Virus record (IMG/VR): IMGVR_UViG_3300042549_001343
Coordinates: 1 to 53,280 of that record
Direction: 5' to 3' (one strand)
DNA: 53,280 bases
DNA from: a virus
Taxonomy: Duplodnaviria > Caudoviricetes
The notes under the pieces are model-generated. The model did not search any database. It had not been told where the DNA came from and saw only the letters and a program-made list of their open reading frames with translations. Both the position numbers and the translations under genes were made by a program. This document shows, in pieces, positions 13,832-31,129 of this stretch (the stretch's first letter is position 1; every line of letters begins with the position of its first letter).

Positions 13832-15268
13832 TCATGTCCATGCTTTGCTGGACGCTTTTTTAACTGGTCGTGCCCTCACCTCTACTCTGCCGCTTCGTGC
13901 TGCTAAACAGAGGTACTGGAGTGCATCGTGGGGATGGCTGTATTTGTCTTTGACTGGTCTGTCGCGGTATCTTTCACCAGCAACCTTGAGTCGTTCGTAC
14001 CTGAACCCGCCGAGGAAACCTTTGCGTAGTTGTCGGCAGTTCGGTGAGAGAAGGAACCCCGCTTCTCCCCCAGCCAACTTGTTGAGGAAGTACGCAACAG
14101 ATTCTCTGCGTGGTATGAAATCATTTGTGCTTGCTGGCTCGCTTGCAATTCCGGCCTCTAGTAGTTCTTGGTAGCAGGTTCTCTCATCTGCTTGAGATCT
14201 GTGTGTACCGGCTGGGTCGCCAGCGGAGATGAACCTCATTCCTGAGTAGGTTGTCATCAGGGCTGGTTTCACAATCTCCTGAGCAAACTGTCTGATGCCC
14301 ATGTCTTCGGCCACGAATTCTTCAAGGATGACAAGCTGTCCTCTTGAAGTTATCTGTCCAACAATGCAAGCAGGTGTGAGTCCGAAGTCCCATCCGAGGT
14401 AGAGAGGCAGTCCTCTATTGACTTCAAGCTCTTCTTCGGCGGTGTGGATTCTGTCGTTGTATTCTGGGTAGACCGGCTTGCCATCGGCGGTTGTTCCGTA
14501 CTGGCCGAGGACGAAGACTTTGATCCAGTCGTCCGTCTTGCCTTTGACCATCTTCAGGTAATACTCATACCCTTGAGGAAGATTGAACACATTCTCCGCT
14601 TCTGAATTCGGCTCATACCGGACATCATCGCCCTCTTGGATACGAAGGAGACCACCCGGTTGGTTAAAGAATTCCCATCCTTCGGGGGTGTCTTCTTCTG
14701 CAATTTTGTAATACCAGTGATCGTCGTCAGGCGGGTTGGTATCAAGGATAACGCATGGATGTACGGGGCCGCCGCCGTGAGTCTTCGCGGGGTAACGACC
14801 GATACGCTGAGTGACCATGTTGAAGACTTCATGCGGAACCTCTGAGGCTTCATTGATCCAAGCTCCAGTAAGTTCGAGGGATCTCAGCTTTCCGGTTTCG
14901 GATGCCTTGTCCAGCGCGATGAAGATAACTTCCAAGTCCAGCCCGTTGCCGTCTCCACAATCTTTGATCTTCATGTGGGCGGTGATTGGGGCATCCCACT
15001 TGATCGGGGCAAGTTCATCATTGAACCATGTTTGCCAAGTCTTGATCGTGGTGGACTTGAGTTCGGGATAGGTATTCCGAATGACCGCCCATCTTGCTTT
15101 TCTCCAGCCATTGTGGGGAGTTTGCTTGAGGGAGTGCTTGACGATCTCCATACAACAGGTTGAGGATTTTCCAGAACCTACTGGCCCTTTGATTCCTCGG
15201 ACATCAGCCATTGAGTTGTGGAACTCAGCGGCCACTTGTCCCGGCGGGTTGTATTGGATGACGGTCAT
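13832..15268 (-). CDS. terL: Terminase large subunit
   Basis: Walker A GPVGSGKS, RNTYPEL, AWINEA Walker B, DTNPP, GWDFGLTPA nuclease, HPHDALQY. Confidence 0.95.
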   Translation of the reverse strand: MTVIQYNPPGQVAAEFHNSMADVRGIKGPVGSGKSSTCCMEIVKHSLKQTPHNGWRKARWAVIRNTYPELKSTTIKTWQTWFNDELAPIKWDAPITAHMKIKDCGDGNGLDLEVIFIALDKASETGKLRSLELTGAWINEASEVPHEVFNMVTQRIGRYPAKTHGGGPVHPCVILDTNPPDDDHWYYKIAEEDTPEGWEFFNQPGGLLRIQEGDDVRYEPNSEAENVFNLPQGYEYYLKMVKGKTDDWIKVFVLGQYGTTADGKPVYPEYNDRIHTAEEELEVNRGLPLYLGWDFGLTPACIVGQITSRGQLVILEEFVAEDMGIRQFAQEIVKPALMTTYSGMRFISAGDPAGTHRSQADERTCYQELLEAGIASEPASTNDFIPRRESVAYFLNKLAGGEAGFLLSPNCRQLRKGFLGGFRYERLKVAGERYRDRPVKDKYSHPHDALQYLCLAARSGRVEVRARPVKKASSKAWT

Positions 15269-15546
15269 TCAGGCTTTACAAAATTTGAACCAATCAAGAA
15301 TGTAACATTCTTTGCATCCGTCTCATGCTTGACAGAAGCCAAGTTCGGCAGGGTTTTGTCCAGCAACATTTCAATTGCTTTGATCCGAGCCGCAGTCAAC
15401 TTGGCAGTCCCCTTGCCCAAAGCAAAGTTTTCCAATGTGGTAACCAAGCTCGACACTTGAATTTTTTCTCGGACAGCAACGGCGTGTTCTTCCCGAAGCT
15501 GCTCCCGACGGGCGCTTACTGCCTCAGTAGATTTCTTTGTTGCCAT
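15265..15546 (-). CDS. terS: Terminase small subunit
   Basis: Directly upstream of terL; RIKAIEMLLDKTLPNL motif; RBS GAGG. Confidence 0.8.
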   Translation of the reverse strand: MATKKSTEAVSARREQLREEHAVAVREKIQVSSLVTTLENFALGKGTAKLTAARIKAIEMLLDKTLPNLASVKHETDAKNVTFLIGSNFVKPE

Positions 15547-15563
15547 TGTTTCCTCTTGTAGTT

Positions 15564-15715
15564 GTTGGCTAATCGCTACGTCTATGGGTCATCCCCGCAG
15601 GTACGCCGACAGCATCCGCTTTCACCAACACGGCTGGAGACTGGTCGCTTCGATCTCAAGGCTTGTACTTCGCCCAGATACCAATCTCCATACGTCTTGA
15701 GATGGTTTGACCATC
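15564..15715 (-). ncRNA. c4/CI-like structured RNA with two stem-loop units in the late leader
   Basis: 11-bp stem TGGAGATTGGT/ACCAGTCTCCA; second unit GTTGGTGAAAGCGGATGCTGTC...GACGTAGCGATTAGCCAAC resembles c4-type phage antisense RNA motifs (recalled, not searched). Confidence 0.55.
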
Positions 15716-15772
15716 ATTGGCAGGGAATATACCCAGTTGATCCGCAATATGCAACACCTTTTCTGGCAATTC

Positions 15773-15881
15773 CTGAATCCAGACCTGATCTCAGACACTC
15801 ATTCCAGTAGAGTGGGTTATTGGGTTTATGGGTTATTGGGTTGCATCCTGTTTTCAGCTCTGATTTCAGAACTGATCTCAG
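15773..15881. repeat. Iteron-like array, copy B: 4x TGGGTT (8-bp period) plus 5x CTGnnnnCAG (12-bp period)
   Basis: TGGGTT at 15813,15821,15829,15837; CTG..CAG boxes at 15773,15785,15848,15860,15872. Confidence 0.85.
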
Positions 15882-16449
15882 AGAAAATGAGTATTTTGTA
15901 GAAAAATTTAGTAGCGGTGTTTGTATAGACCCCGTGGTTTTGGAGACTGGTGTAAGAAAAATGAACTTGTTCTTGTGAGTTACCTATAGCTAGAGGCTCG
16001 GGACGCACGTCACGCACGCACGGGCCACGCCACCCCGTCACCCCTGTAGCACCCGCATCGCACGCCGTGCCCACACAGTCCCTCTGGGACAGAGATCGAC
16101 AGATTTATAGGCTCAGAGACCAATTAAACGGTGATTTAGCCCTCTTTAGAGGGATAGGGGTGCATTGTGTGGTGGATTGATCGGGGTAAATGTACGTATT
16201 TCCTACGGAAACGTGCGTGATTTACTGAAACTTACTTTTTCCCTACCCAAAATCTCAATCATTTCAATGCCTTGCATAATGCACGTGTTGACTATCCCTG
16301 CCTATTTATCCCCTATATGAACTCCTATTGGAGTCGTGTATGGGACGCTGTGCCAAAGGCTTTTCCGGCTCAACCTTCGATTCAACCCCAAAACAACACC
16401 TATTTTCAACTTTTTTACGTAGTAATAGGGGTCGAAATGAAAAAAAGAC

Positions 16450-16479
16450 TTGACACAGCATCAACTTTCTGGTCAACTT
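16450..16479 (+). promoter_or_regulatory. Probable early sigma70 promoter
   Basis: Perfect TTGACA at 16450 preceded by an A-tract; -10 box is weak. Confidence 0.5.
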
Positions 16480-16484
16480 CAAAT

Positions 16485-16900
16485 CGTCAATTCGGCAACA
16501 AACCGAAAGCAGACTCAGTAAGTGCTAAAGCACCGTAGGACAGATAGGCTGTGACCCTTCGTAGAAGGGAGTAAGCAAAATCCTTCGGTGACGCTCCGAA
16601 CAAGTCTCTTGACCCCAACGGCGGGATGTAGCGTCGGACTCCGGAGGAGTTGTAACACGGTGGGAACCGTCAACAACACAGCACCGAAGGGTTGGACTAA
16701 GGCTTTGCCTTACTTCTAGAGGCCTCGACTTCATGCAGGTAGCTTCCCTTAAGGAAGAGGTTGCATCGAGCATCGAGATAAACACAGACTTTAGTCTGTC
16801 AACACTCACAGAGTTTCAACGGTATGGCAGTCTCTGACTGCTATGCACTGGACGCTCTGTCCTGTCTTTAGAGGCTCTGCCTCTATTTCGCAACTCACCG
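16485..16900 (+). ncRNA. Large multi-branch structured RNA / early leader
   Basis: Nested long-range helices 16570-79/16704-14 and 16580-90/16682-92 plus many local hairpins; no convincing ORF. Confidence 0.65.
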
Positions 16901-16917
16901 CATTCGAAAGGAATCCC

Positions 16918-18069
16918 ATGCGTGACTCACTCGTTCCCCTCTCCAAGCCCGAAATCCTCTGGATTTTCCGCCACCTCAACGGTGGAACCGTAGGTTTCAA
17001 CTTCGAGACCGTCCAAAAATTGGACTTGATCGACAGATTACTACTGGCCTTCTCTGAAGGACAGATTACCGATGCCATGTCAAATGGTATCCCAACCGTT
17101 AACCCCAAAGGGGTTGCCATCGATGGAGAAAGTCGTCCAATGCCACCTGCCACCAAGCCTTCGGCTCCCAAGTCATCAGACACTGATGCACTGCAAGCCC
17201 TCCGCAACTTACTGTCTCCGACAGTCGACGAAGCAACTGTTCGACAGATTGTTCTCGCCGAAGTCAAGAAAGCAATGGACGATAGTCCAGTTGTCAAAAT
17301 CGAGGTCGTAAGACCTGACGGTTCAGCCCACAAAGTGGAAGGCCACACCAGACCAGAATTTAAGAAAATTCTGACCAGAGCAACTGTCGGTATCAACATT
17401 CTGTTGGTCGGCCCTGCCGGTTGTGGCAAGACGCACCTTGGTCACCAAGTGGCTGAAGCCCTTGGTAGACCCTTTGCCTCGGTCTCTTGCACTGCCGGAA
17501 TGTCAGAGTCAGCCCTTCAGGGCTGGTTGATTCCTTCAGACGGTGGTTCTTTCCAGTACCTTACCTCTGACTTCGTCAGAATGTATGAGGAAGGCGGTGT
17601 CTTTCTGTTCGACGAAGTCGACGGTGCAGACAGCAATACTTTGCTGTTCCTGAATCAGGCTCTCGCCAATGGATCGTTCTTTTTGCCGATCCGGAAAGGT
17701 GCTTCACTGGTCAAACGTCATCCAGACTTTGTCTGTATTGCCGCCGCCAATACCTTCGGTACTGGAGCAAATCAGACTTATGCCGGTCGTGAACGACTCG
17801 ATGAGTCGACACTGGACAGATTCCGTGCCGGCGTCATCTCACTGGACTATGACCAGACTTTCGAAAGAAAGACTGTGGCTCCTGACCTGTTGGCTTGGGG
17901 TTGGGCGATTCGTAAACGAATCAATGAAGCCCGACTCCGTCGAATCATGTCAACTCGATTCCTGCTCGATGCAACGAAGTTGCTCAAGGCCGGTGAGACT
18001 GTCGAGGAAATCAAGGCGACCTTCTTTGAAGGTTGGTCAGCAGACGAAATCAAGAAAGTAGAGGTCTGA
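16918..18069 (+). CDS. MoxR/CobS-like AAA+ ATPase
   Basis: Walker A GPAGCGKT, Walker B LFDEVD, AAANTFG, STLDRF arginine finger; RBS GAAAGGA. Confidence 0.92.
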   Translation: MRDSLVPLSKPEILWIFRHLNGGTVGFNFETVQKLDLIDRLLLAFSEGQITDAMSNGIPTVNPKGVAIDGESRPMPPATKPSAPKSSDTDALQALRNLLSPTVDEATVRQIVLAEVKKAMDDSPVVKIEVVRPDGSAHKVEGHTRPEFKKILTRATVGINILLVGPAGCGKTHLGHQVAEALGRPFASVSCTAGMSESALQGWLIPSDGGSFQYLTSDFVRMYEEGGVFLFDEVDGADSNTLLFLNQALANGSFFLPIRKGASLVKRHPDFVCIAAANTFGTGANQTYAGRERLDESTLDRFRAGVISLDYDQTFERKTVAPDLLAWGWAIRKRINEARLRRIMSTRFLLDATKLLKAGETVEEIKATFFEGWSADEIKKVEV

Positions 18070-18070
18070 A

Positions 18071-18946
18071 ATGCTCCGCATTTATTCTGAATCACAGAAT
18101 CTTACGACTGTCCTTTGGGACAGTGTCACCGAACCCGAGGCTCTGCTTAAAGCAGACGGATGGAAACTCGATGCGAATAAGTCCTCCGGACTGAATCACT
18201 TCAGCCGAAAGGCTGATACAGCATGGCTCGGTGTCCCGTCTGTCGATGCTCTCCGCAAGGTCTTAACCAAAGGTTGGAAGGCCGGAGTCGAGCGAATCGA
18301 ACAGATTCCCCTTGGGGAATTGCCCGAACCGACAAGCATTCGTCGTCGTCGAGTCCGTGCCGACCAAGGCGACGAGTTGGACATGCAGGCCGTGTACCGT
18401 GGCGACGTAAGCAGGGCTTGGTCTAGAACCAAGCGACAGAGCAGAACATCTGTCCGATCTGTCTCGATTGTGATTGACCTTGCCGGAAATGCAAACGTCA
18501 CTTCAGAACAACTGTTCTGGAGAGGTGCATCAGGTCTGCGACTGGCTGACGAGTTGACCAAGGCGGGCTACTCTGTAGCCATCTACGGTGCGGCCGGTGC
18601 AGCGAACGTATCCTCCGAAGGCCAAGAGGACTTGGTGCAGTTTGTCGAAATCAAGGCAGAGGATTCTCCTCTGGACATGGACAGATTGGCCGCTCTGACT
18701 GGACTGGCTGGGTTCTTTAGAACCTCCCTGTTTGCCGGTATCTACTGGTCTTGTGACCAACTGGGCAAGCACACCTCTAGTGGTCTCGGTCAATCGGACA
18801 ACAAGCTGATTGCCAAGGCAATCAAGCACATGCCGATTCCACAGAATGCAATCATCCAACCTCCGGTTAAGACTCAGGACAAGGCCGAGGAATGGTTGAA
18901 ATCTGTTCTCGAACAGATCGCCAAACCTGAACAGCAGGTAGCGTGA
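18071..18946 (+). CDS. vWA-like (CobT-type) partner of the MoxR ATPase
   Basis: GDELDMQAVYRG pre-vWA motif; SIVIDLAGN degenerate MIDAS strand; adjacent to the AAA gene. Confidence 0.7.
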   Translation: MLRIYSESQNLTTVLWDSVTEPEALLKADGWKLDANKSSGLNHFSRKADTAWLGVPSVDALRKVLTKGWKAGVERIEQIPLGELPEPTSIRRRRVRADQGDELDMQAVYRGDVSRAWSRTKRQSRTSVRSVSIVIDLAGNANVTSEQLFWRGASGLRLADELTKAGYSVAIYGAAGAANVSSEGQEDLVQFVEIKAEDSPLDMDRLAALTGLAGFFRTSLFAGIYWSCDQLGKHTSSGLGQSDNKLIAKAIKHMPIPQNAIIQPPVKTQDKAEEWLKSVLEQIAKPEQQVA

Positions 18947-18953
18947 CGGAGTG

Positions 18954-19008
18954 GCAGGGGAAACCCTGCTCTTCTAAGTGTGCATTCAACCGAGTGCATA
19001 CCTAGAAG
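18954..19008 (+). promoter_or_regulatory. Two intergenic hairpins (RNase III-site-like or antitermination element)
   Basis: GCAGGG-GAAA-CCCTGC and CTTCTAAGTGTGCATTC-AACC-GAGTGCATACCTAGAAG with G-U pairs, no U-tract. Confidence 0.55.
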
Positions 19009-19036
19009 CATCCCGCTTCACATGAAAGGAACACAC

Positions 19037-19297
19037 ATGATTAGCGATCACGTATACATTGAAAAGGTTGTCACCCTGTCTCTGACAGCGGATGACTGGG
19101 CGCTTTATCACATCGATGGCAGACATGATGCTGCTCTCGGCTTGAATCAAGCCGTCTCTACTGCACTGAATAACTTCACCAAAGGTACGGCAATCGGAAA
19201 AATCGAGGAGGCTCTCGAAAAGTACAGCGACTGGGGTGCGAATGACACCGAAGGTCATGCCACAGTGCGACAGATTTTGGGTTTGTTCTACAAATAA
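19037..19297 (+). CDS. Early hypothetical protein
   Basis: RBS GAAAGGA; 86 aa; WGANDTEG motif. Confidence 0.75.
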   Translation: MISDHVYIEKVVTLSLTADDWALYHIDGRHDAALGLNQAVSTALNNFTKGTAIGKIEEALEKYSDWGANDTEGHATVRQILGLFYK

Positions 19298-19306
19298 GGA
19301 GCGAAT

Positions 19307-19600
19307 ATGAAAACCTACAAAGGGACGGTGGTCTTTCGGTACTACCAAGAGGTGACCGTCGATGCTGAAAGCATAGAACAGGCAGAGCGAATGATGTTCG
19401 ATGCCTTTGACATGCACAGATCAAATGCCGAGTCAGAGGTAACCGATCTCACTTTAGTGAGTGACAACGCAAAGGCCGAGTGCCCATGCTGTGACCCATG
19501 CAATCCGGAATTGGATGAGCAAGGCCGCCCGTATACATGCTTTGCTTGTGGCGACACTGGCTGGGTTAACGTCGAACCAACAGAAAAGGAACAGATATGA
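19307..19600 (+). CDS. Early acidic protein with C-terminal Cys cluster (CPCC..C...CFAC)
   Basis: RBS TAAGGAG. Confidence 0.75.
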   Translation: MKTYKGTVVFRYYQEVTVDAESIEQAERMMFDAFDMHRSNAESEVTDLTLVSDNAKAECPCCDPCNPELDEQGRPYTCFACGDTGWVNVEPTEKEQI

Positions 19601-19794
19601 GAGTGAACATCATGTTTGGCTTAGGCCATGTCGCTGAGAACGAAACAGACTGGGAGACTATTCGTCTCTTGCAGTCTCTCATTGAGCAACTGACCAACAA
19701 GCCCGAGCCTATGAAGGCCGGTGACGTAGTCATCATCCGTGACATCAACGGCAACCGTATCGGTGTGGCTGACTTTCTGGAGGACAGATTATGA
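19597..19794 (+). CDS. Early hypothetical protein (IRDINGNRIG motif)
   Basis: ATGA coupling, RBS. Confidence 0.7.
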   Translation: MRVNIMFGLGHVAENETDWETIRLLQSLIEQLTNKPEPMKAGDVVIIRDINGNRIGVADFLEDRL

Positions 19795-20027
19795 AAACAT
19801 CAGAGCGATTCGCTTTGTCACAGTGGCTGACAGACTATCCGGAGGATGCCTCATTCGATGAGGTACTGGACATTATGCGAGACCCCGAGAACACATGGTG
19901 CGTGGAGTGCATCACTGTATGGGAGGCAGTCGAGACTTTCCCACTGGCTGATGTGGCAGGGTTCATCGAGGACACAAAGCATAGCTTTGAACGGTTCACT
20001 TATGACTTTGAAAGGATTGAGGAATGA
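19791..20027 (+). CDS. Early highly acidic protein
   Basis: 20 D/E vs 6 K/R in 78 aa; RBS GGAGG. Confidence 0.75.
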   Translation: MKTSERFALSQWLTDYPEDASFDEVLDIMRDPENTWCVECITVWEAVETFPLADVAGFIEDTKHSFERFTYDFERIEE

Positions 20028-20284
20028 AGTATTTCACTCAAGCGCAACTCATTGTTGCGTCCCTTCTTGCGGAGAAGAGGGGTTACAACCGACAGATCGA
20101 AACAGATTTGATCTGGAAGAACACGAAGGCCTCGGATAAATTCCCTGTGCTTTTCTCGATGCCACATGAGCATGCCGGTGGTGTGCCTTGTGATCTCCAT
20201 ATGCGATGCGTCGTCGAGATCGATGGTCAATCTGTTCAGATCGACACCGACATGGAAATTTTCGAAACACTGGAGGATCTATGA
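20024..20284 (+). CDS. Early hypothetical protein
   Basis: ATGA-coupled chain; HEH..C..H..C possible metal site. Confidence 0.7.
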   Translation: MKYFTQAQLIVASLLAEKRGYNRQIETDLIWKNTKASDKFPVLFSMPHEHAGGVPCDLHMRCVVEIDGQSVQIDTDMEIFETLEDL

Positions 20285-20718
20285 TTAAGCTGAGCGAAGT
20301 CCCGACAGATAAACCCATCAACCTTTTGTTCCACGAAGGGACGGAGGTTATCGAGAACGACAGAGAGGACACTGTCAACATCGACCCGATGAAAACACTG
20401 GAGATAGCTGACGCTGTCAGCGATGAACACTGGCGAGAACTCAAGCACAACACTGCATTCATGCACAAATTCCGCATGGTGTTCGGTGACTTGGGCTTAG
20501 CTGACACTCCACTGCAAATGCACGGCAGGGGTGTTCAGCATGTGGTCGGCCTGATTCTGTTGACAGATACCGCCATCGGCCTTGGCCTCAATCCATTCTG
20601 GAGACTTCCAGAATCCTACCTGCACCCGAAGCATCAGCTTGGGTTGGGTGATCTGCTCATCCACTACATGAACATCATCGACCGAATGGGTGAAAAGAAT
20701 GTGGCTGAACCCACATGA
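20281..20718 (+). CDS. Early hypothetical protein
   Basis: RBS GGAGG, ATGA overlap at 20281. Confidence 0.7.
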   Translation: MIKLSEVPTDKPINLLFHEGTEVIENDREDTVNIDPMKTLEIADAVSDEHWRELKHNTAFMHKFRMVFGDLGLADTPLQMHGRGVQHVVGLILLTDTAIGLGLNPFWRLPESYLHPKHQLGLGDLLIHYMNIIDRMGEKNVAEPT

Positions 20719-20891
20719 GGTAGCGAGTAGGTTGGTGCTGACACTGGCAATGATCGGTGTCGGTGCGAGCCTACTCCTCCCTGATACACAACTCACGGGA
20801 CAGCAACTACAACAGATTTCAAAGCAGCGTTCGAAAGACAAAGCGAACGAGAGACTCGAAAGAAAAAAACAACTCACTCAAAGGAAAAGAA

Positions 20892-21134
20892 ATGACAATG
20901 CAAAGCATTCAGTTGGCGACTGTAAGCGGTGTGGTATCTATGATTGAAAAGGTCGCTGATCTCGCCATCAAAGATGGCAAGCAAGCACCCGAAGGAATGA
21001 TGTCTGCGATGGATGCAGTGTGCAATCTACTCGAGGCCAAAGGCAAGGGGGACAAACAGATACTCGCAGTGGTTGCCAAGGTAAGACAAGCATGCAATCT
21101 CAAGAAAGGAAAACCCAATGACTCACTCGTCTGA
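20892..21134 (+). CDS. Early hypothetical helical protein
   Basis: RBS AAAGGA before ATG 20892/20898. Confidence 0.65.
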   Translation: MTMQSIQLATVSGVVSMIEKVADLAIKDGKQAPEGMMSAMDAVCNLLEAKGKGDKQILAVVAKVRQACNLKKGKPNDSLV

Positions 21135-21339
21135 AAGAAACATCACCATCGATGCTGACTATCAGCCTCCGTCTGTCAACAGATGGACTCCCGAAGATGA
21201 TCTCGTGCAGAAACTTTATGCTCCTCATCCTATCGATGAACAGCATGAAGCGAATGCGCTTTGGTCTGATGATCTGTTCCTTGGTGTGCTACTGATCGTA
21301 GTCATGCCGGTTGCAGTATTTGTTCTCCTCGCTTACTGA
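21118..21339 (+). CDS. Early protein with C-terminal membrane anchor
   Basis: RBS AAAGGA; LFLGVLLIVVMPVAVFVLLAY. Confidence 0.7.
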   Translation: MTHSSERNITIDADYQPPSVNRWTPEDDLVQKLYAPHPIDEQHEANALWSDDLFLGVLLIVVMPVAVFVLLAY

Positions 21340-21350
21340 AAGGAAATCAC

Positions 21351-21704
21351 ATGCGAGCTTTTTTAATTGACCCATTCAAGCAAGAAGTCACCGAAGTTAA
21401 TTACTCCGGAGACTACAAACAGATTTGCAAACTGATCGACGCAGATCTGTTCGATGTGGCTCGACTCAACGCAAAGGGCGACGGCATATTTGTGGATGAC
21501 GAAGGTCTATACGCTGAAGATCAGCGGTTCTTTCAGCATAAGTTCTACCCCAACCCACTGGCCGGTAAGGGGCTTGTGCTTGGCTGTGACATGGACACTG
21601 GTGAATCTGCCAGTGCATCCATGACACTGGAACAGTTGGTAGATGACATTGAATGGGTGATGCCCATTCGAGTAAACGGGGAGGTCGTATGGATAAATGC
21701 TTGA
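21351..21704 (+). CDS. DUF3846-like early protein
   Basis: AFLIDP...IFVDDEGL...PLAGKGLVLG motif. Confidence 0.8.
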   Translation: MRAFLIDPFKQEVTEVNYSGDYKQICKLIDADLFDVARLNAKGDGIFVDDEGLYAEDQRFFQHKFYPNPLAGKGLVLGCDMDTGESASASMTLEQLVDDIEWVMPIRVNGEVVWINA

Positions 21705-21727
21705 ACAAATTCACAGGAGAAAACACA

Positions 21728-22420
21728 ATGCAATTCATTACACACAACGAGAGGGAGTCCCTCATCGATGAGACCAATGGCTCATCACATGTTGGTGACA
21801 TCGAGGCAACCTACAAGGAGATCTGTTCTCTGTTCGGCAAGCCATTGTCTTATGACAAGGGGAAGGTCGACGCACACTGGGTCGTCAAGTTCAACGACGG
21901 AACAGTTGCGTCTATCTATAACTGGAAGAATGGCAAGGCATACATGGGAGACGAAGGTCTTGCGATTCAGTCGATCAGGACATGGAGTGTCGGTGGACTT
22001 GGTCAAGTCTCTAACACACTGGTGCAGATCACACTCGACCTACACAGGGAGTCGAAGGAGCCGACGAAGAGAGACCCATTCGAGGGGGCATTCTCCATGA
22101 TGGAGAACATAACCAAGACGAAGGGCGAATCCTATGCCGCACTGGTAGAGGTGACTATGCTCACCATGAAGCGCAAGCAATTGCTAGAGATGGTGATTGA
22201 TTTTCTGGAAAAGAAAACAGATATGCCGAAGAGGGTGAGGAGAATCCTCGAAGAGATGGACACAGAGATTTGTGTCCGCACAATCTCAAGAGCATGCCAT
22301 GCGTCAGGCCTTGACTTTGACAACGAAGATAAGGCCAATGAGTTAATGGAGTGGGCGGCAAAGATTGTGTCTCAAGAGGTCGAAGCTATGTCCGACATGC
22401 TCAAGAAAGAAGGCAAGTGA
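21728..22420 (+). CDS. Early hypothetical two-domain protein
   Basis: RBS AGGAG; LFGKP...KVDAHW...SIYNWK...WSVGG N-terminal domain common in phages. Confidence 0.75.
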   Translation: MQFITHNERESLIDETNGSSHVGDIEATYKEICSLFGKPLSYDKGKVDAHWVVKFNDGTVASIYNWKNGKAYMGDEGLAIQSIRTWSVGGLGQVSNTLVQITLDLHRESKEPTKRDPFEGAFSMMENITKTKGESYAALVEVTMLTMKRKQLLEMVIDFLEKKTDMPKRVRRILEEMDTEICVRTISRACHASGLDFDNEDKANELMEWAAKIVSQEVEAMSDMLKKEGK

Positions 22421-22421
22421 C

Positions 22422-22634
22422 ATGATAGATCTCCGCCTAGAGCGGGGTCATGTCTCTATGACTGTCGCATCACAACTCATGGGTGTGTCTCGCCAACGTG
22501 TGCATCAGCTACTCAAGTCTGGTCGCATCGTTGGTGCATTCCTCATGGACTGTGGCGACGGTCGAGAGATATGGTGCATCCCTCGCAACTCACTCAAGCA
22601 CAAGGAGAAGCCATGCTCGATCTCATTGGCGTGA
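22422..22634 (+). CDS. Xis/MerR-like helix-turn-helix DNA-binding protein
   Basis: ASQLMGVSRQRVHQLLKSGRI...WCIP. Confidence 0.75.
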   Translation: MIDLRLERGHVSMTVASQLMGVSRQRVHQLLKSGRIVGAFLMDCGDGREIWCIPRNSLKHKEKPCSISLA

Positions 22635-22744
22635 TATTCATGCTGTTCATGGGCGCATCCATAGTCATTGTCGTTGGGGCATTGGCTATTTGGATAGGCG
22701 AAACAACATACAAGCGCAAGAAAAGAAAGGGGAAGGTCTGGTGA
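22613..22744 (+). CDS. 43-aa single-pass membrane protein
   Basis: RBS AAGGAG; MLDLIGVIFMLFMGASIVIVVGALAIWIG followed by a basic tail. Confidence 0.65.
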   Translation: MLDLIGVIFMLFMGASIVIVVGALAIWIGETTYKRKKRKGKVW

Positions 22745-22917
22745 TTGAAAAGATTCAAACATTCTTCGGGAGGATTTGTGGTCAACACGGAAACAAACGG
22801 ACAGTGATAGTCGAATCTGTCGCTTGGTACTGTGCCAAGTGCAAGCAAGTCTGGCTCGAAAGAGACGAGGCTTATTTTCATACATGCAAAGGAATTAAAA
22901 ATGGAACCAGAAATTAG
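22741..22917 (+). CDS. Small Zn-finger-like protein
   Basis: GTGA coupling; CAKC...HTC. Confidence 0.55.
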   Translation: MIEKIQTFFGRICGQHGNKRTVIVESVAWYCAKCKQVWLERDEAYFHTCKGIKNGTRN

Positions 22918-23323
22918 GGTTGGTGGTACTGCTCACCGTGTGCTGTCCATACTGGCGAGCAAAGGAAACATGAGTCCGGCTATGATTAAGAAGACAGGCA
23001 TCATTGCCGGTAAGTCTATTGTTGATATAGACAATGCCATTGTCTATGAGTTAGTGCCGAAGGGCATGGTGATAATGGTGAGCGGATTGTTCTACAGCCT
23101 CACGCAAAAAGGTCTCGACACAAAGATCGAGCTTGGCAGTTTAGATAAACTGTTCAAAGCACCACGCAAGACAGTGATGTCGCAACAAGATGATCTGTTC
23201 GCAAGAGGTACTTACGATGGGGCGGAACTGCGTAGTACCTGCATGAGGAGAGGAGCGTATGACGCATACAACCTGCCATCTCTTAGCTTTGCTGGCCTCA
23301 CATACAGAAAGGTTCCACTATGA
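22901..23323 (+). CDS. Winged-helix-like protein
   Basis: RBS AAAGGA; YSLTQKG wing motif; YDGAEL...RRGAYDA..LPS C-terminus. Confidence 0.7.
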   Translation: MEPEIRVGGTAHRVLSILASKGNMSPAMIKKTGIIAGKSIVDIDNAIVYELVPKGMVIMVSGLFYSLTQKGLDTKIELGSLDKLFKAPRKTVMSQQDDLFARGTYDGAELRSTCMRRGAYDAYNLPSLSFAGLTYRKVPL

Positions 23324-23511
23324 CTACAGACAGAGAAGTCTACATAGAAAAGGTGTTGGAAGAGTTTAGGCCGAAGACCGGAACACTCATGCTCATGCTC
23401 TCTCTGAAAGAGTACGAGGATTTGGTCAGGCTCATCGGTGAGCGAGCATACGAGTACGGTTGGATTGAGGGAATGGCTGACGCAAGTTACGCCAAGAAGT
23501 TAAAGGCTTAA
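23320..23511 (+). CDS. Hypothetical protein (last early gene)
   Basis: ATGA coupling; converges on the Q-like gene. Confidence 0.65.
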   Translation: MTTDREVYIEKVLEEFRPKTGTLMLMLSLKEYEDLVRLIGERAYEYGWIEGMADASYAKKLKA

Positions 23512-23994
23512 CTCGAACCCACCTTCAACAAACATCTGTCCATGTAATCTTTCAATGGCTCTGATCTGCACTGGCATCCAAGCACGAAGGACAGCGTTGC
23601 GCCAGTTGCAGACTTGCCTATAACTCACACCCCTCTCCTCCGCAATCTTCCTGATACTGGGTCGCTTAGTCGCCCAGTGCATGAGAATGATCTGCAACTC
23701 ACGGACACTAGGCACAGTACCACTCACATGATGGTGCAAGTAATCAGCGAAACCTCTTATCGCATCTGACCTAGACCGACCCCTCCCGTACATTGAAAGT
23801 ATCGAGTCCCTCTCTACCTGATGCAATCTGTTCAGCATCGAATGGATCATCGCAGCCTGAGCATGCAAGTCCATAGGCGACAGATCATCTTGACTTGTGC
23901 CGCGAGTACCAAGCAAGTCCGTGCGGCTGAACTCTTCCCGCTCGCTCACGTTGAACGAGAACTTGATTGCCTGTTCGACGCTATGAAACTTCAT
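23500..23994 (-). CDS. Putative late transcription regulator (Q/sigma-region-4-like HTH)
   Basis: SIRKIAEERGVSYRQVCNWR HTH; follows rusA as in lambdoid nin-Q order. Confidence 0.6.
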   Translation of the reverse strand: MKFHSVEQAIKFSFNVSEREEFSRTDLLGTRGTSQDDLSPMDLHAQAAMIHSMLNRLHQVERDSILSMYGRGRSRSDAIRGFADYLHHHVSGTVPSVRELQIILMHWATKRPSIRKIAEERGVSYRQVCNWRNAVLRAWMPVQIRAIERLHGQMFVEGGFELSL

Positions 23995-24386
23995 GCCCAG
24001 TCCTTGTCCTCTGCAATAGTTACGTGAAGCCCGCCCCATGAAGTGGGTTGCCCAAGTTTAATGGACAGATAAGTTATCTGCCTGTCATTCTCATAGGCTA
24101 TGCCTTGTAGCGCATCTAGTGCTACCTTCTGTGCGTTATCAATATCAATCCGCCGCACACCCAATCCCCACAATCTGTCCTTCTTCTCTCGCTTCTTTGC
24201 ATCTGCTGGCCTCACTGGATGGAGAACAAGCATCACCATCACCGGAACAGTGAACAACTCCAGCTTGTTGGATCGGGCGATCCATTCCACCTCATCCTTG
24301 TACGCAGTGGCGGCACTGCTCCTGACCATGCGCCCACGAAAGTTGCGCCAGTACACATTGGTGCTGATGGGATATGGAAGCATCAT
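23991..24386 (-). CDS. rusA: RusA Holliday junction resolvase
   Basis: LPYPISTN..WR, DIDN..K...DALQG..YENDRQI. Confidence 0.9.
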   Translation of the reverse strand: MMLPYPISTNVYWRNFRGRMVRSSAATAYKDEVEWIARSNKLELFTVPVMVMLVLHPVRPADAKKREKKDRLWGLGVRRIDIDNAQKVALDALQGIAYENDRQITYLSIKLGQPTSWGGLHVTIAEDKDWA

Positions 24387-24910
24387 TCGGAGTGTTCTTT
24401 CTTTGGCCGACCTGACTTGCGCTTGGATGCCTCGTACTTAGTCATCACATCCTCCATTGCCTGTGTGCTTGGCAACGAAACTACTGTGCCGAGCATGCCC
24501 ATCATGGCCTGTTCCCATCTCCTTGGGTCTTTCTTATTGTTGTTTGGTACACCAACCACGCCACCATTACTGGTGTCTGGTTTGATAAACACCGTCTCTG
24601 GATGCTCGCATCTACCGAGCACATACTGTTCATCCCTGTACGCAGGGGTGCAATCACGACAGTGTTCGACACGAACCCCAGATCTCCTGTCTCCCGCACT
24701 GCTCCACACAAACGCAACCACGTACTCTTTCCACTTGCGATCACTCTCGTAGCACGGTGGCCGGGAGGGATTTGCCACCCCGGAAACTACCAATCTGTCG
24801 AATTCTGTCCGAACAAACTCCGGTTCATGTCCGAGGCAGTAGCCATAGAACCCAGACGGATGTTCGCAATGAAGAAAACTACATCGACGTACTGGCTTAT
24901 TGTTTTCCAA
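24383..24910 (-). CDS. Cys-rich hypothetical protein
   Basis: C...C......YC..H and CRDC...C motifs; GRPKK tail. Confidence 0.7.
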   Translation of the reverse strand: MENNKPVRRCSFLHCEHPSGFYGYCLGHEPEFVRTEFDRLVVSGVANPSRPPCYESDRKWKEYVVAFVWSSAGDRRSGVRVEHCRDCTPAYRDEQYVLGRCEHPETVFIKPDTSNGGVVGVPNNNKKDPRRWEQAMMGMLGTVVSLPSTQAMEDVMTKYEASKRKSGRPKKEHSE

Positions 24911-25241
24911 GATGAAGCACTCCCTCTCTTATTGCCTGTAACAGTGTCAGGGCTGTGTGTTCAAGCTGTGATCCATGCTCCTCCTCCCACGCATGCACGT
25001 CGTGGTGAAGTACGTCATGGCAAGTGCGACAGATGGGTATCACCCACCAGTCCGGAACCTTCGTACCCATACCCTTGAAGCCTGATCCATGTGGATGGTG
25101 CGGGTCATCTGCCGGTACGTTGCAACTCACGCACCTCAAGGTCTTCACCCATCGGGTGTACATGGGCGACTCCATGCGCTCCACGTAGCCATTAGTCAGC
25201 GCCTGTTTAAATGTTAGGTATGGCGGAATGACCTTCGTCAT
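24897..25241 (-). CDS. DUF968-like HNH/Zn-finger protein
   Basis: WVKTLRCVSC...DDPHH...GMGTK...IPICRTCHDVLH. Confidence 0.85.
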   Translation of the reverse strand: MTKVIPPYLTFKQALTNGYVERMESPMYTRWVKTLRCVSCNVPADDPHHPHGSGFKGMGTKVPDWWVIPICRTCHDVLHHDVHAWEEEHGSQLEHTALTLLQAIREGVLHLGKQ

Positions 25242-25576
25242 GCCCCGTAACCTTTTCTTTCAGTGCGCTCGTTTGCTTGTGTGGTTTGCCAGACAGCTAC
25301 GCCCAGCTTGAGTATCTCCAGTTCCCAGCGAAGTTTTTCTGAGATCTCTGTCGCTGTCCGCAGGCTCTCCAGAACCAAGATGTATTTGGGATCGGCGCGA
25401 GCTTCTCTCTCCTGCGCTGCCGCCGTCTTGTGTCCAAGGGCTTCATACTCTTTCATCAAGATCGCAAGCTGAGACTCACGAAACTTTTCGAGATAGTTCT
25501 TTTCTGCGACCGCCTCTGAATAGATAGCGGACTTCTCTCGCATCTCAGCGAGTCTTGCCTCTGCCTTTTCGTACAT
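25238..25576 (-). CDS. Coiled-coil conserved phage protein
   Basis: AAQEREARADPKY...VWQT..ANER motif. Confidence 0.75.
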   Translation of the reverse strand: MYEKAEARLAEMREKSAIYSEAVAEKNYLEKFRESQLAILMKEYEALGHKTAAAQEREARADPKYILVLESLRTATEISEKLRWELEILKLGVAVWQTTQANERTERKGYGA

Positions 25577-25805
25577 TGATTGCCTCCGTTTGACGATAGT
25601 TATCTGGAATTACAAACACATTCTTTTCTACTGGCCTCTTACCGATCTCCTTGCCGGTCAACAGATCATGCGCCCAGATTAACTTAGAGTCGGGATACTT
25701 TTCGTTGACCTCGTCCATAAGTTTTGCAACCCACGGCATCTCTTCTCTGTTCTTTTTGCGCTGCTCTTCACGCAACTGATCTTTGATGTCTGCTATATCT
25801 TTCAT
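25545..25805 (-). CDS. Hypothetical protein
   Basis: Coupled ORF in the replication operon. Confidence 0.65.
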   Translation of the reverse strand: MKDIADIKDQLREEQRKKNREEMPWVAKLMDEVNEKYPDSKLIWAHDLLTGKEIGKRPVEKNVFVIPDNYRQTEAINVRKGRGKTR

Positions 25806-26146
25806 AGTTTTTTTACTCCGCTGGTGTGTTCGGTCGCAAAAAATTCGTATGCAACCTCAGACCCTCTGGCAATAGCGTCGGCTTTCTTTTCATTTAGCTT
25901 CTTAATTTGGTCGCACATATTGACAAGCTCCTCACCAGACTTTGGAATACCCCAGTCCATCACAAACTCTGAGGCCTGATTCAGGGCATGCTCTCTGATG
26001 AGCATGATTTCTTTGTGGGTGATTGATCTATTCGACCTGTCTTTGACCATCTCCAGCTCAAACGACAGAGAATGGACAGCCGCCTTGTATGCTTCAAGCT
26101 CAGCGGCAAGTTGTTTTGCACGCAATTCAAACTTCGTTGGAGTCAT
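25802..26146 (-). CDS. Hypothetical protein
   Basis: RBS AAGGAG; ATGA coupling. Confidence 0.7.
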   Translation of the reverse strand: MTPTKFELRAKQLAAELEAYKAAVHSLSFELEMVKDRSNRSITHKEIMLIREHALNQASEFVMDWGIPKSGEELVNMCDQIKKLNEKKADAIARGSEVAYEFFATEHTSGVKKL

Positions 26147-27090
26147 ATCTCAACTCCTTCACTAGACATGTATCTGTCGTAGTTGTAGTAGGTCTTGTTT
26201 GTCGGAGACTGTGAGTACGAGCATGCTCCAGACTGATAGAACAAGCCTACCCGACCCTCCCAATCTCCGTGCCTGTTCTTGTCGCAAACCAAAAGCGCAT
26301 CAGGTAAACCCTCATCAACCTCTTTGCCAGCCTGAATCTGTTGCTCTTTGCGTTTGTTTCTCCAAACAGTAAAGCACTGATCCACCTGATCGACAATGGC
26401 TCCGCTGCCTTTGGCATCCATCTTTCCGGGGACTTGCATTTCGTCTCCAAGTTTTCTACTGTGATGGATTACATGTACATGTATGTTGAAGTCCAAGGCA
26501 AACGAACAGACATTGTCAATGAAGTTCTTTTGTCCGTTGTAGTCGTCCTCACCCTTAACAACCTTCATCAGTGAGTCAATGACGAAATGCTGCACACCAA
26601 GTTTCTTTGCGGCGTAACGCATGATTGCCAACAGATGGTTCGGATCTGTCTGTCCCATCTTGTCGTACAACCACAGCCGGTTAGTCGCATGGGACAGAAC
26701 GCCATCGACAAACCTTGATGTTGGGAGCGCACTACCAGCAGCTTGCTTACACATGCGAGCAAGCGTTGCTCGTGGCTTCATCTCAAAGCTGGCGACGCAG
26801 ACCTTCTGGTTCTGATGTAAGAAGTCAAGCATGACGTGGCTGGTCAACAGACTCTTTCCATGTCCGTTGATACCCATCCACAGGCTCACCTCGCCCGGAC
26901 GAAATCTAATGTGGTCATGGGTCTTGGGCCAAGGAAGTCTTGCGCCATCGACCATCTCTCCGCCATTCAACAGAGCAATGGTCTCGTCTCTGTATGCCTT
27001 GGGCGCAACGATCTTGTCCTTGTCGTGCGGCTCACTCGCATACTCGGCAAAGTCTATGCTGTCTGCTGTGAAGATCATTTCATTTGACAC
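26143..27090 (-). CDS. SF4 (DnaB/T7 gp4-like) replicative helicase, no primase domain
   Basis: FRPGEVSLWMGINGHGKS Walker A, SFEM, VIDSL, HHSRK, KGSGAI, KNRHG. Confidence 0.9.
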   Translation of the reverse strand: MSNEMIFTADSIDFAEYASEPHDKDKIVAPKAYRDETIALLNGGEMVDGARLPWPKTHDHIRFRPGEVSLWMGINGHGKSLLTSHVMLDFLHQNQKVCVASFEMKPRATLARMCKQAAGSALPTSRFVDGVLSHATNRLWLYDKMGQTDPNHLLAIMRYAAKKLGVQHFVIDSLMKVVKGEDDYNGQKNFIDNVCSFALDFNIHVHVIHHSRKLGDEMQVPGKMDAKGSGAIVDQVDQCFTVWRNKRKEQQIQAGKEVDEGLPDALLVCDKNRHGDWEGRVGLFYQSGACSYSQSPTNKTYYNYDRYMSSEGVEI

Positions 27091-27550
27091 TGTCTACTCC
27101 TAATAAAAATTCCAACTCGTAGTCATAGACTCTTCTATAAACAGCCTCTGCTGGATGTGTAATTAATCCGAGTTCAATATCTCCATTGATCTCAGGCCTG
27201 TAGGTTAAGTGCGCTCCGGCTTGCTTGTCGATATTCCATAGGTACAGGTAGCCATGAAAGTTATCGGTAGCAATGTAACCACCGTTAGGCTTTGCCTTCG
27301 CAATTGTTTCTGCGTAGTGCTTAACCAAATCACGGTGAACAGATGCGTCATAGACCAAACAGATTTGCAAGTCTCTCGCCCAGATCCATTCATAGCTCTC
27401 TGGGCTTTTGTTTGTGTCAACATAAACAACCCAGTTGCCGTCGGTCAAGTCTCCAACCATAGACACAAAAACAATCTCGTTCGGAACCATCTTCTTGTTC
27501 ATACGCAAGTCAAAGATTTCTCCGGCTCCATCTGGTAGTGGCTTCTTCAT
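27080..27550 (-). CDS. Hypothetical protein upstream of the helicase
   Basis: 156-aa ORF with RBS AAGGAG. Confidence 0.7.
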   Translation of the reverse strand: MKKPLPDGAGEIFDLRMNKKMVPNEIVFVSMVGDLTDGNWVVYVDTNKSPESYEWIWARDLQICLVYDASVHRDLVKHYAETIAKAKPNGGYIATDNFHGYLYLWNIDKQAGAHLTYRPEINGDIELGLITHPAEAVYRRVYDYELEFLLGVDSVK

Positions 27551-27696
27551 GTGTTCTTCTCCTTAGCAGTCCACTTGATTGAAGAAAGATTAAGCAAAAT
27601 TAAAAAGCACCAAGGGCTTATGAAGTATGCCGATACACAAGCGCAAATTAATGTCACTATGTTCTCTGCGTAAACCCATCTAACAAGGTTATCCAT
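27547..27696 (-). CDS. 49-aa AT-rich membrane peptide (MDNLVRWVYAENIVTLICACVSAYF...KEKNT)
   Basis: RBS AAGGAG; fills the gap exactly; not in the ORF track. Confidence 0.6.
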   Translation of the reverse strand: MDNLVRWVYAENIVTLICACVSAYFISPWCFLILLNLSSIKWTAKEKNT

Positions 27697-27946
27697 TGTT
27701 CTTCTCCTTGAGTTTGGCTTCAATAGCGTTGTAAAAACTAAGTTGTGTTGTTGTGGACTCCATGCAACAAGCCGCTATTTCTTCAACCGTCAGCCCTACC
27801 CATGTGCGCTGTAATGGGTGCGTGTAAAAAGCCGTACCAACACCTTTTTCACATTCCCACCAAATTTTGCGTGGTCTTCCGTCAATGTATTGACCTTCGC
27901 AAACATCTTCTGCAACCCACGCTACAGGCTCTTGCTCTTGTGTCAT
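27689..27946 (-). CDS. QEPVAW...WVGLT.EEI...IEAKLKEKN mosaic family protein
   Basis: Characteristic conserved motifs at both ends. Confidence 0.75.
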   Translation of the reverse strand: MTQEQEPVAWVAEDVCEGQYIDGRPRKIWWECEKGVGTAFYTHPLQRTWVGLTVEEIAACCMESTTTQLSFYNAIEAKLKEKNNG

Positions 27947-28161
27947 TTCTTCATCTCCCTGATGTAGGTTGCAATACTGGACAAGGTGTCCTTACCAAAT
28001 GCTTTGGCAAATCCATGCTCGATATTGAAGGCCGCCATCTCCAGTGCGGCATTCCATCCAGCCTCGTAATGTCTTTCAAGTCTTTCCTGTACAGTGCTGA
28101 GCTTTTGCTCAAGGCCGCTGAGCTTCTCGTCAATATCTGTCTGTCTGTTGAAGTCGGTCAT
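27943..28161 (-). CDS. Hypothetical coiled-coil protein
   Basis: MTDFNRQ start overlapping the initiator stop; GWNAALE motif. Confidence 0.65.
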   Translation of the reverse strand: MTDFNRQTDIDEKLSGLEQKLSTVQERLERHYEAGWNAALEMAAFNIEHGFAKAFGKDTLSSIATYIREMKK

Positions 28162-28832: not shown

Positions 28833-29105
28833 CTTTCTTTTGATACCCCGAAGGGACAGGGAACACTGGTCGAAAGGAACAAACTACCAGTGCTTTCAGT
28901 TCTTAGAGCGACCAAGAACCTACCCTGCGGAAGAGAGTGTCGTTGATTGCAAAACAAATTGCAAGCGGGTAAACCATTACCCATTTGGTTTAGTTGGTCT
29001 TTGCTTACAAATTCGTCAACTCACTGTACAATTGTCGGAGAATCATGTATAGTTTGCCTACCTTAAAAGGTAAATGCTTTACACATTGTCAACGAAAGGA
29101 ACCAG
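28833..29105. promoter_or_regulatory. Divergent control region between replication and recombination operons
   Basis: AT-rich gap between divergent genes with TTGACA/TTGACG (-) and TACAAT/TATAGT (+) boxes. Confidence 0.5.
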
Positions 29106-29882: not shown

Positions 29883-30115
29883 CAGATTCTGCCTTAGATT
29901 CACTAAAAATGCAGCTAGACGCTGCAAAAATACAACTGGCCAACGCAACAGTGGACGCTGTAATCGTGGAGGTTGTCTTGCCTATGGCCTACAACATCAT
30001 TGACCAACTCATCGATCTGGACGGCAAGCCAATACCAAAGAAACTTTTGGCCGATGCAAAGAAACTTCTGCCAAGCAACTACAAGAATTCATTTCAGTTC
30101 AAGGGCGAGGCATGA
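29879..30115 (+). CDS. Hypothetical protein
   Basis: ATGA overlaps on both sides. Confidence 0.65.
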   Translation: MTDSALDSLKMQLDAAKIQLANATVDAVIVEVVLPMAYNIIDQLIDLDGKPIPKKLLADAKKLLPSNYKNSFQFKGEA

Positions 30116-30732: not shown

Positions 30733-30734
30733 CA

Positions 30735-31127: not shown

Positions 31128-31129
31128 CC

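Follow-up and report, generated by a model that had tools for sequence, protein, structure and literature searches.

To our knowledge, only a small number of large structured phage RNAs have been described, and the majority of them are without an assigned function. Two of these, GOLLD and ROOL, are large, phage-associated and derived from lakes, as is the source of the leader RNA described here. The HK022 put RNA and the Bacillus EAR element are cis-acting elements of processive antitermination; a put-type RNA is a compact structure of two stem-loops that makes RNA polymerase resistant to terminators in cis. Hairpins processed by RNase III occur in T7-type early transcripts. The CI RNA of P4 and the c4 RNA of P1 and P7 are encoded in leaders and work through short, repeated complementary boxes.

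The DNA analyzed here, which we call the window, is the whole of a 53-kb virus record (53,280 nucleotides), with a completeness of 96% according to CheckV. A gap of 1.3 kb that is free of genes separates a leftward block, in which the terminase genes come first (large subunit at 13832-15268), from a rightward block whose first genes encode an AAA_5 ATPase and then a DUF7192 protein; plus-strand open reading frames (ORFs) run from 16918 to about 23300. An initial annotation had placed a structured RNA of roughly 400 nt in this gap, at 16485-16900, and its position just 3' of a conserved promoter and 5' of a MoxR-class AAA gene was confirmed. The promoter is of the sigma-70 type and lies on the plus strand, with a -35 element at 16450-55, a 17-nt spacer, the TG of an extended -10 at 16470-71 and a -10-like element at 16473-78. 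A strict promoter consensus scan did not call the promoter at 16450-78. The -35 hexamer was found in 22 of 22 full-length leaders, and the -10 region of distant relatives is nearer to the consensus than that of the window. We infer that transcription starts near 16485.

At the other end of the leader, the longest ORF of the ATPase gene starts at 16843, but the ATG at 16918 is the one common to all relatives, and upstream of it the conservation pattern among the relatives compared is not protein-like. Both the ribosome-binding site (RBS) at 16906-13 and the start codon 3' of it (16918-20) are conserved on the plus strand. Judged by sequence comparison, the true start of the AAA gene is 16918 rather than 16843, which extends the leader to 16917. 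The initial annotation had correctly taken the region as structured and non-coding, with its end at 16900. The leader is a non-coding stretch of about 430 nt, from about 16485 to 16917. A conserved 9-nt motif at 16890-98 (plus strand) precedes the RBS in near and distant leaders; in one relative, L094, a similar motif and an RBS recur after the DUF7192 gene.

The leader resembles each of several known systems in part. As in riboswitch and attenuator leaders, it is proximal to the promoter and ends at the RBS of the gene that follows, a helix (P1) closes a multi-helix domain with conserved junctions and with covariation in P1, P2 and H3, which is a likeness of architecture only, and mutually exclusive helices lie near the 3' end, with a terminator before the RBS in some members. 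Unlike those leaders, it has no Rfam match, no covarying antiterminator and no suggested ligand, and a natural variant, L009, misses most of the 5' domain; moreover, its length of about 430 nt and its three domains put it far above the size of most riboswitches. With GOLLD and ROOL (bioRxiv 10.1101/2024.12.08.627333) it shares being phage-borne, a length of hundreds of nucleotides and many covarying helices, but it is smaller and lies between a promoter and a protein gene instead of forming a free-standing gene. Compared by description, the HK022 put RNAs are likewise structured nascent RNAs just 3' of an early phage promoter, whereas the leader is far larger, differs in architecture and has few terminators downstream. 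Its 3' hairpin, in which a conserved internal loop parts two helices of about 7 and 11 bp and which lies just upstream of the first early gene, recalls the RNase III hairpins of T7-type phages; in contrast to these, the host of the leader is no enterobacterium and the hairpin sits within a much larger conserved structure. By analogy, the shape of this hairpin (16811-57) would be compatible with an RNase III-type processing site. Like the P4 CI and P1/P7 c4 RNAs, the leader would be a regulatory RNA within the leader of an early or immunity operon, but relatives do not keep the repeated complementary boxes that can be found in the window (e.g., 16555-61, 16581-88 and 16684-91).

Searches for known families were negative. 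At gathering thresholds, none of the 4227 models of Rfam 15 matched anywhere in the window, and only two matches, both at chance level, appeared in 16000-17100 when E was raised to 10. Eleven homologous loci gave six weak matches, none of which recurred or reached the gathering score. Models of riboswitches, T-boxes and leaders had no match in the window or the 11 homologues even at E up to 10, nor did the GOLLD and ROOL models match these sequences, and ARAGORN found no tRNA or tmRNA gene in the window. Thus the window and the 11 homologues are without a single Rfam match at gathering score, in line with the initial annotation, which could not assign the RNA to a known family. At the level of titles and abstracts, supplementary motif lists aside, the literature holds no description of the leader RNA, and the accessible part of bioRxiv 10.64898/2026.09.15.751765 mentions neither phage nor AAA, MoxR or a leader.

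Relatives were collected by several routes. Among 25 IMG/VR loci fetched by way of the ATPase, 20 had leader-like DNA upstream of the AAA gene; the ATPases of the five viral loci without a leader are 42-49% identical. A motif scan added three more leader-bearing loci (L027, L037 and L067) as well as L048, which is the far end of the contig of L005; L037 and L067 are identical to L096 and L015. A leader profile matched 17 of 80 metagenome loci. With duplicates removed, there were 27 distinct leaders, 22 of them full length, and the homologous leaders in viral and metagenome loci represent the near clade only. The leader occurs once per genome. Public phage records contained no DNA match to 15500-17000, and the best protein relatives of the AAA gene were found in Acinetobacter phages (51% identity over 72% of the length).

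The 5' and central parts of 18 sequences were aligned without fitting to a structure (alignment A3), and RNAalifold returned from this alignment a nested architecture unlike the one first proposed. After curation, the A3 structure had 91.0% of its cells paired and changes on both sides in 30 of its 52 pairs. None of 500 shuffles scored as high, a control that ignores relatedness and that related sequences alone can exceed, and the slid controls, which correct for relatedness, were clear (36-46% paired). An alignment fitted to a model gave 93.4% paired cells and both-side changes in 34 of 51 pairs. This covariation rests on perhaps six lineages, with an effective sequence number of 1.96 to 4.89.

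All elements of the structure are on the plus strand. Six bases from the inferred transcription start stands H1, a 5'-terminal hairpin (16491-95/16503-07) that is 72-94% paired in the 18 near-clade leaders of A3 and 82-95% paired in the fitted alignment; a hairpin at the same place was seen by eye in the distant leaders, which we call type B. The 5' domain (16511-16607) is closed by P1 (16511-15/16603-07), in which 5 of 5 pairs show both-side changes. It contains H2 (16521-25/16530-34), P2 (16535-40/16581-86), P3 (16548-49/16575-76) and the covarying H3 (16555-60/16564-69). All six pairs of P2 have both-side changes, and the main sequence groups differ in its arms yet remain complementary. Unpaired junctions of this domain are conserved at 16543-48, 16572-80, 16588-94 and 16597-601. 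A pairing of 16511 with 16603 had been proposed as a possible pseudoknot; the pairing is supported by covariation, but as the nested helix P1. The natural variant L009 has lost the interior of the 5' domain but retains the two P1 strands, which pair as a plain hairpin; this is strong natural evidence for P1. Because L009 does without most of it, the 5' domain is dispensable.

Within the central domain (16608-16724), P4 (16619-22/16633-36) is 100% paired in A3, with both-side changes in 3 of 4 pairs. It is followed by a block of 14 nt (16637-50) that is unchanged in 18 of 18 sequences and holds P5 (16640-42/16646-48), which is itself invariant and hence not open to judgment by covariation. P6 (16649-53/16678-82; in A3 94.7% paired and both-side changes in 4 of 5 pairs, in the fitted alignment 100% and 5 of 5) encloses the GNRA-capped P6a (16657-61/16666-70), whose loop is GGGA or GTGA. 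A conserved purine-rich strand (16684-91), the hairpin H6 (16698-703/16707-12; both-side changes in 3 of 6 pairs in A3 and in 6 of 6 in the fitted alignment) and a conserved purine motif (16718-22) complete the domain. The unpaired junction sequences are conserved better than the stems. An all-against-all scan of alignment columns, which covered contacts between the central and 3' domains, returned only the known helices and 3-bp noise. Pairings of 16684-91 with H3, P2 or 16612-16 were considered by eye, and none is kept across groups. Of candidate CsrA-type sites with GGA in a loop, the sole conserved one (loop 16644-46) is AGA in some relatives.

The main departure from the initial annotation concerns its multi-branch core, which was built from three nested long-range helices (16570-79/16705-14, 16580-89/16683-92 and 16590-95/16630-35). 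These were 61.9% paired across A3 as against 61.0% in shuffles, with 31 of 500 shuffles as high and both-side changes in 4 of 26 pairs. Such helices can be drawn in the window alone and are not kept across the family. Their arms are reused in H6, P2 and P4, all of which covary, and it is P1, P2, P4 and P6 that replace them. The local hairpins fared better. Those at 16491-95/16503-07, 16522-25/16530-33 and 16555-60/16564-69, the GGA-loop hairpin at about 16638-51, the one at 16657-61/16666-70 with its GNRA cap, the interrupted stem at 16724-77, the hairpin at 16784-99 and the 11-bp stem at 16822-32/16836-46 all exist in the sequence and are backed by the comparative analysis, apart from the invariant P5, which is not judgeable. 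Covariation among homologues, a check that the annotation itself had named, was found for P1, P2, P4, P6 and the 3' hairpin, and not for the long-range helices. What remains of the original observation is a non-coding, plus-strand structured RNA with local hairpins, without the long-range core.

Between the central domain and the 3' module lies a variable domain (16724-16799) that consists in the window of the interrupted hairpin 16724-77 and a hairpin at 16784-89/16794-99. In the nine sequences that carry this domain, 6 of its 26 predicted pairs have both-side changes. Elsewhere it is swapped for one short hairpin (L002, L088 and L009) or for two other hairpins (the group of L025, L013 and L011). 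In L015 and L092, extra hairpins, two of them in L015, are inserted at one point of the central domain. Such insertion, swapping and, in L009, deletion of hairpins with the flanking helices kept is a modularity typical of structured RNAs.

For the 3' part, 25 sequences were aligned, again without fitting to a structure (alignment A2). Covariation on A2 supports a long hairpin at 16811-16857, made up of an outer helix (16811-14,16-17/16851-52,54-57), a conserved internal loop (16818-21/16847-50) and an inner helix (16822-30/16838-46 in the family, extended in the window to 11 bp, 16822-32/16836-46). Its cells are 96.4% paired, 9 of 15 pairs show both-side changes, none of 500 shuffles is as high, and slid partners are 27-53% paired. 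A second hairpin, gamma (16850-54/16858-62), is 90% paired, with both-side changes in only 1 of 5 pairs; its 5-bp stem was flagged as terminator-like. Gamma and the 3' strand of the outer helix use common bases, indicating that the two are mutually exclusive. The difference in energy between the outer helix and gamma was 0.2-4.8 kcal/mol in 14 of 15 rows of the nearer group and -1.3 in L090; in L088, where the hairpin is not aligned, it was 14.0 kcal/mol.

The last hairpin, delta (16869-75/16879-85), has a short T-rich tail that reaches 16889. Relatives carry three versions of its stem, with pairing retained. The position of delta, directly before the RBS, is taken in L092/L093 and L100 by a canonical terminator made up of a G+C hairpin and a run of 7-8 T; L016, L098 and L099 have no hairpin there. 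A terminator scan of the window called gamma only and not delta, which has three T after the stem. No covarying antiterminator that pairs with delta was found, which weakens the case for an attenuation switch. One candidate antiterminator would have joined a 7-nt copy at 16718-24 to the 3' side of delta (16879-85); it was rejected given that the upstream copy stays constant while the stem changes. A boxA/boxB-like reading of 16853-85 was likewise discarded, since its boxA-like bases show no conservation of sequence and change together with the 5' strand of the outer helix.

The minimum free energy of 16485-16900 on the plus strand was -148.7 kcal/mol compared to a mean of -124.6 ± 6.5 for dinucleotide shuffles (z -3.71; 0 of 100 shuffles as good), so the fold passed the shuffling control that the initial annotation had called for. 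The minus strand of the leader also beats its shuffles (z -3.10), and energy by itself cannot therefore assign the strand. The preference of G-U pairs for the plus strand, also claimed at the outset, does so: the supported helices hold 119 G-U cells versus 31 A-C cells, and the 3' hairpin alone 66 versus 5, an excess that indicates an RNA read from the plus strand. As first stated, no ORF in the leader is backed by an RBS; none is conserved either, and ORFs of at least 20 codons vary among the leaders in place, frame and start codon, with no shared ORF found and with two leaders that have none of that length. A few copies show long stop-free frames on the minus strand. Substitutions in the leader lack a 3-base periodicity (p 0.91 and 0.47), whereas a 300-base piece of the ATPase gene, as a control, gave p 4e-29. 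Because this test does not depend on the strand, it also answers the stop-free minus-strand frames, and coding on either strand is rejected given the absence of both a shared ORF and codon periodicity. The leader is a real, conserved, plus-strand structured RNA of a family outside Rfam, with a base-paired architecture, a non-coding nature and a place that reaches from the promoter to the first gene.

Contigs from RNA libraries covered 16505-16780 at a likeness of at least 85% in three of four runs, from three studies; these are short Logan contigs from relatives that carry no information on ends, strand or depth and may reflect DNA carry-over. In the four runs, none lay over 15500-16500. The contigs are a weak hint that is compatible with expression of the leader and no proof of transcription.

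How far the leader extends beyond the near clade was examined with two covariance models. R1, a model of the 3' module, matched the window once. Beyond its seed it matched L014 and L166, and it also matched L177-L179 and L181, which a distant-group motif had retrieved. In 77 more distant ATPase loci (L104-L165, L167-L176 and L019-L023), R1 found nothing at E up to 0.01. R2, which describes the 5' and central domains, matched the window once and 20 near-clade loci, with no match in L097, L099, L103 or L166 and nothing in 21 loci of more distant AAA/vWA pairs. L101, with only 196 nt of upstream sequence, gave no match. The type-B leaders (L097, L099, L103 and L166) keep the promoter, the 5'-terminal hairpin, some junction motifs and a GNRA-capped hairpin, and they also retain the 3' hairpin together with the motif that precedes the RBS; the remainder differs. 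Given the breadth of R1 and R2, the 3' module next to the RBS is the part common to every leader that retains that region.

The genes that follow were examined as possible partners. Sequence matches of the ATPase in the PDB include Midasin, CbbQ, NorQ and CobS, and its PHROGs family is annotated as CobS-like 'porphyrin biosynthesis'; by sequence, the ATPase is assigned to the MoxR class. For the DUF7192 protein, a PDB sequence search found nothing. A structural model of this protein (pLDDT 84) had as its best Foldseek matches the vWA domains of NorD in NorQ-NorD complexes (probability 0.96 and E 1e-4, with a TM score of only 0.27), and the next match was the MIDAS domain of Rea1. Judged from the model, a vWA-like protein is plausible. 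Of the MoxR/vWA label that the pair was first given, MoxR holds for the first gene and vWA is plausible, not proven, for the DUF7192 protein. In L014, where a small unrelated ORF is inserted between the leader and the ATPase gene, the leader still heads the operon; it always ends at the RBS of the operon's first gene, L014 with its different small ORF included. This constancy of place, together with the lack of a match at distant AAA/vWA loci, argues against a dedicated partnership with the AAA/vWA pair. The leader looks like an operon-level, promoter-proximal element rather than a partner dedicated to the ATPase.

One relative lies on an 8.3-kb contig that was binned into a Limnohabitans metagenome-assembled genome (MAG), and this single contig hints at a host of the Limnohabitans type. 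Sequencing runs that share words with the window come from lake and other freshwater samples. Among 101 genomes of the genus of that MAG, which holds L166, R1 had one match only, L183, in a run whose stricter filters lost the known site in G001 itself. L183 is a coding-looking stretch with no AAA gene nearby, and we took it as a chance match. The leader RNA does not appear to have been copied from a host RNA.

The explanation that we favor, though only tentatively and without holding it to be probable, is that the leader acts in cis as a modular 5' region of the early operon and that its 3' module governs read-through, processing or translation. Host RNA polymerase would transcribe the leader of the rightward early operon from the plus strand, H1 at the extreme 5' end would shield the transcript, and the two domains formed by P1-P3, H2 and H3 and by P4-P6 and H6, with their conserved junctions, would serve as a platform for some factor or fold. 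The 3' module by the RBS (the long hairpin with its internal loop, gamma and delta) would then determine how much RNA arrives at the first gene: polymerase would read through a weak terminator, the transcript would be processed within the hairpin, or both. An expression platform in the 3' module is plausible given its mutually exclusive helices of similar energy, the pairing that delta keeps through its stem versions and the terminators in L092/L093 and L100. The weak tail of delta, its absence in some relatives and the lack of a covarying antiterminator argue against a simple attenuator.

The main rival, which we consider possible but doubtful, is that the region mainly yields a separate, stable non-coding RNA of about 370-400 nt with a function in trans, be it as decoy, sponge or scaffold. 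Termination at delta or cleavage within the 3' hairpin would release this RNA, with read-through as the only route to expression of the AAA gene. Such a release would suit the canonical terminators of L092/L093 and L100, which stand 3' of the structured part and ahead of the RBS, and the size, number of helices and conserved junctions go beyond the needs of a simple leader. The RNA also resembles no cis-regulatory family in Rfam. Coverage of the leader by RNA-library contigs in three of four runs is also in its favor, but contigs cannot reveal RNA ends. Against a discrete RNA, the window and several relatives have a weak terminator or none, and the leader, with one copy per genome, is always fused to the first RBS of the operon. 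A plainer alternative is that the leader merely stabilizes or spaces the transcript as a string of hairpins that withstands host RNases, with no sensing or switching. The 5'-terminal hairpin of the 18 near-clade leaders and, by eye, of type B fits this, as do the free swapping, insertion and loss of hairpins and the survival of L009 without most of its 5' domain. However, the long-range helices P1, P2 and P6 covary, the junctions, with the 14-nt block invariant in 18 of 18 sequences, are more conserved than the stems, and the 3' hairpin has a conserved internal loop; hairpins that serve stability alone would require none of these features, and we regard a stabilizing leader as unlikely. The same block, junctions and internal loop would be the functional sites if the leader were no passive untranslated region but a new, large phage RNA class with an activity of its own, either a riboswitch-like sensor of some signal in the infected cell or a scaffold or substrate of the AAA+/vWA-like pair, a reading that we judge to be quite unlikely.

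Processive antitermination, in which the nascent fold would make polymerase resist downstream terminators, has the location on its side, in that the leader is directly 3' of an early promoter, heads the plus-strand ORF run from 16918 to about 23300 and stays proximal to the promoter even when the first gene differs, as in L014. Yet the leader is about six times the length of a put RNA, its most conserved module adjoins the RBS and not the promoter, and inside the operon there is one weak plus-strand terminator-like site (21512-26) to be overcome. Terminator-like sites on both strands of 16400-32000 numbered 21, where 13.5 were expected. Antitermination thus seems very unlikely. Least credible is that the region acts as DNA (an origin, a packaging site or an operator array) or encodes a small protein. 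A gene-free stretch of 1.3 kb beside terminase genes, a minus-strand fold that also beats shuffles (z -3.1) and the long stop-free frames of some copies might suggest this, but the G-U excess is strand-specific (119 versus 31 A-C cells), compensatory changes maintain the helices, no ORF is shared, two leaders have no ORF of at least 20 codons, and codon periodicity is absent. Both the DNA-element and the small-protein reading are largely refuted.

For annotation, the work corrects the start of the AAA ATPase from 16843 to 16918, and R1 and R2 can be used as covariance models to annotate this leader family. The leader has a clear address, from promoter to RNA to first early gene, along with natural deletion and insertion variants that delimit its modules and enough relatives for covariation to make it a tractable case for the control of the earliest genes in an uncultured freshwater phage. 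If it serves only to stabilize the transcript, its role would be an ordinary one; if it senses a signal, or has a partnership with the AAA+/vWA-like pair, it would represent a new regulatory principle.

The 5' end of the AAA gene, which encodes a MoxR-class ATPase and opens the rightward early operon, can be placed by conservation. Although the longest open reading frame begins at 16843, it is the ATG at 16918 that is conserved as the start, and a ribosome-binding site (RBS) precedes it at 16906-13. Automated annotation from 16843 would take in 75 bases of the structured non-coding leader (16843-16917), among them its last hairpin (16869-75 paired with 16879-85). From the conserved start (window 16918-17250, together with the homologues), the N-terminus of the AAA protein, about 55 residues, consists of a small domain and, after it, a proline-rich linker. 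All the loci that bear the leader have the small domain in common; the more distant ATPases at L104-L106 have an N-terminal domain of another kind.

In the relative L014, an additional small open reading frame (2389-2577), of 62-85 codons depending on the choice of start, separates the AAA gene from the leader. L005 and L048 are the two ends of a single 52.6-kb IMG/VR contig whose break falls inside the leader, so that one end carries the 5' part of the leader and the opposite end the 3' part. It follows that the assembly represents a circularly permuted genome.

Conservation is higher in the 75 bases immediately 5' of the -35 hexamer (16375-16449) than in the leader itself. Within it lie a palindrome (around 16415-25) and a run of A residues (16440-46), and the segment looks like a regulator site combined with an UP-like element. 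It is the promoter-proximal end of a stretch of about 900 bases (15547-16449) that also lacks coding capacity and that carries a 23-nt repeat present in three copies (15773-15882), a 14-nt repeat whose three copies overlap (15813-42), and a G+C-rich run of the CACG type near 16000-16060. Possible roles for the stretch are those of an origin, a packaging site, or the late promoter region.

The protein encoded by the next gene, DUF7192 (18071-18946), gave a confident predicted model (pLDDT 84). Its closest solved folds are NorQ-bound NorD vWA domains and the Rea1 MIDAS domain, and since the TM-scores are low (0.2-0.3), assignment of the model to this type of fold is tentative. Elsewhere in the window, the minus strand carries an open reading frame of 2650 residues (32834-40786). 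Its sole match in Pfam is to LPD38, which is a domain belonging to large polyvalent proteins.

In the spacer 3' of the DUF7192 gene (18947-19037) there is a GNRA-capped hairpin (18954-59 paired with 18964-69) with a T-rich tail. The matching spacer of the related locus L094 (2540-2640) contains a hairpin resembling the last one of the leader, the same 9-nt motif that is conserved before the RBS of the AAA gene (16890-98), and again an RBS. Start regions of early genes may carry this motif as a general feature. When one mismatch was permitted, counts of the 8-nt core of this motif in the whole window were not above chance; exact matches numbered eight on the plus strand and zero on the minus strand.
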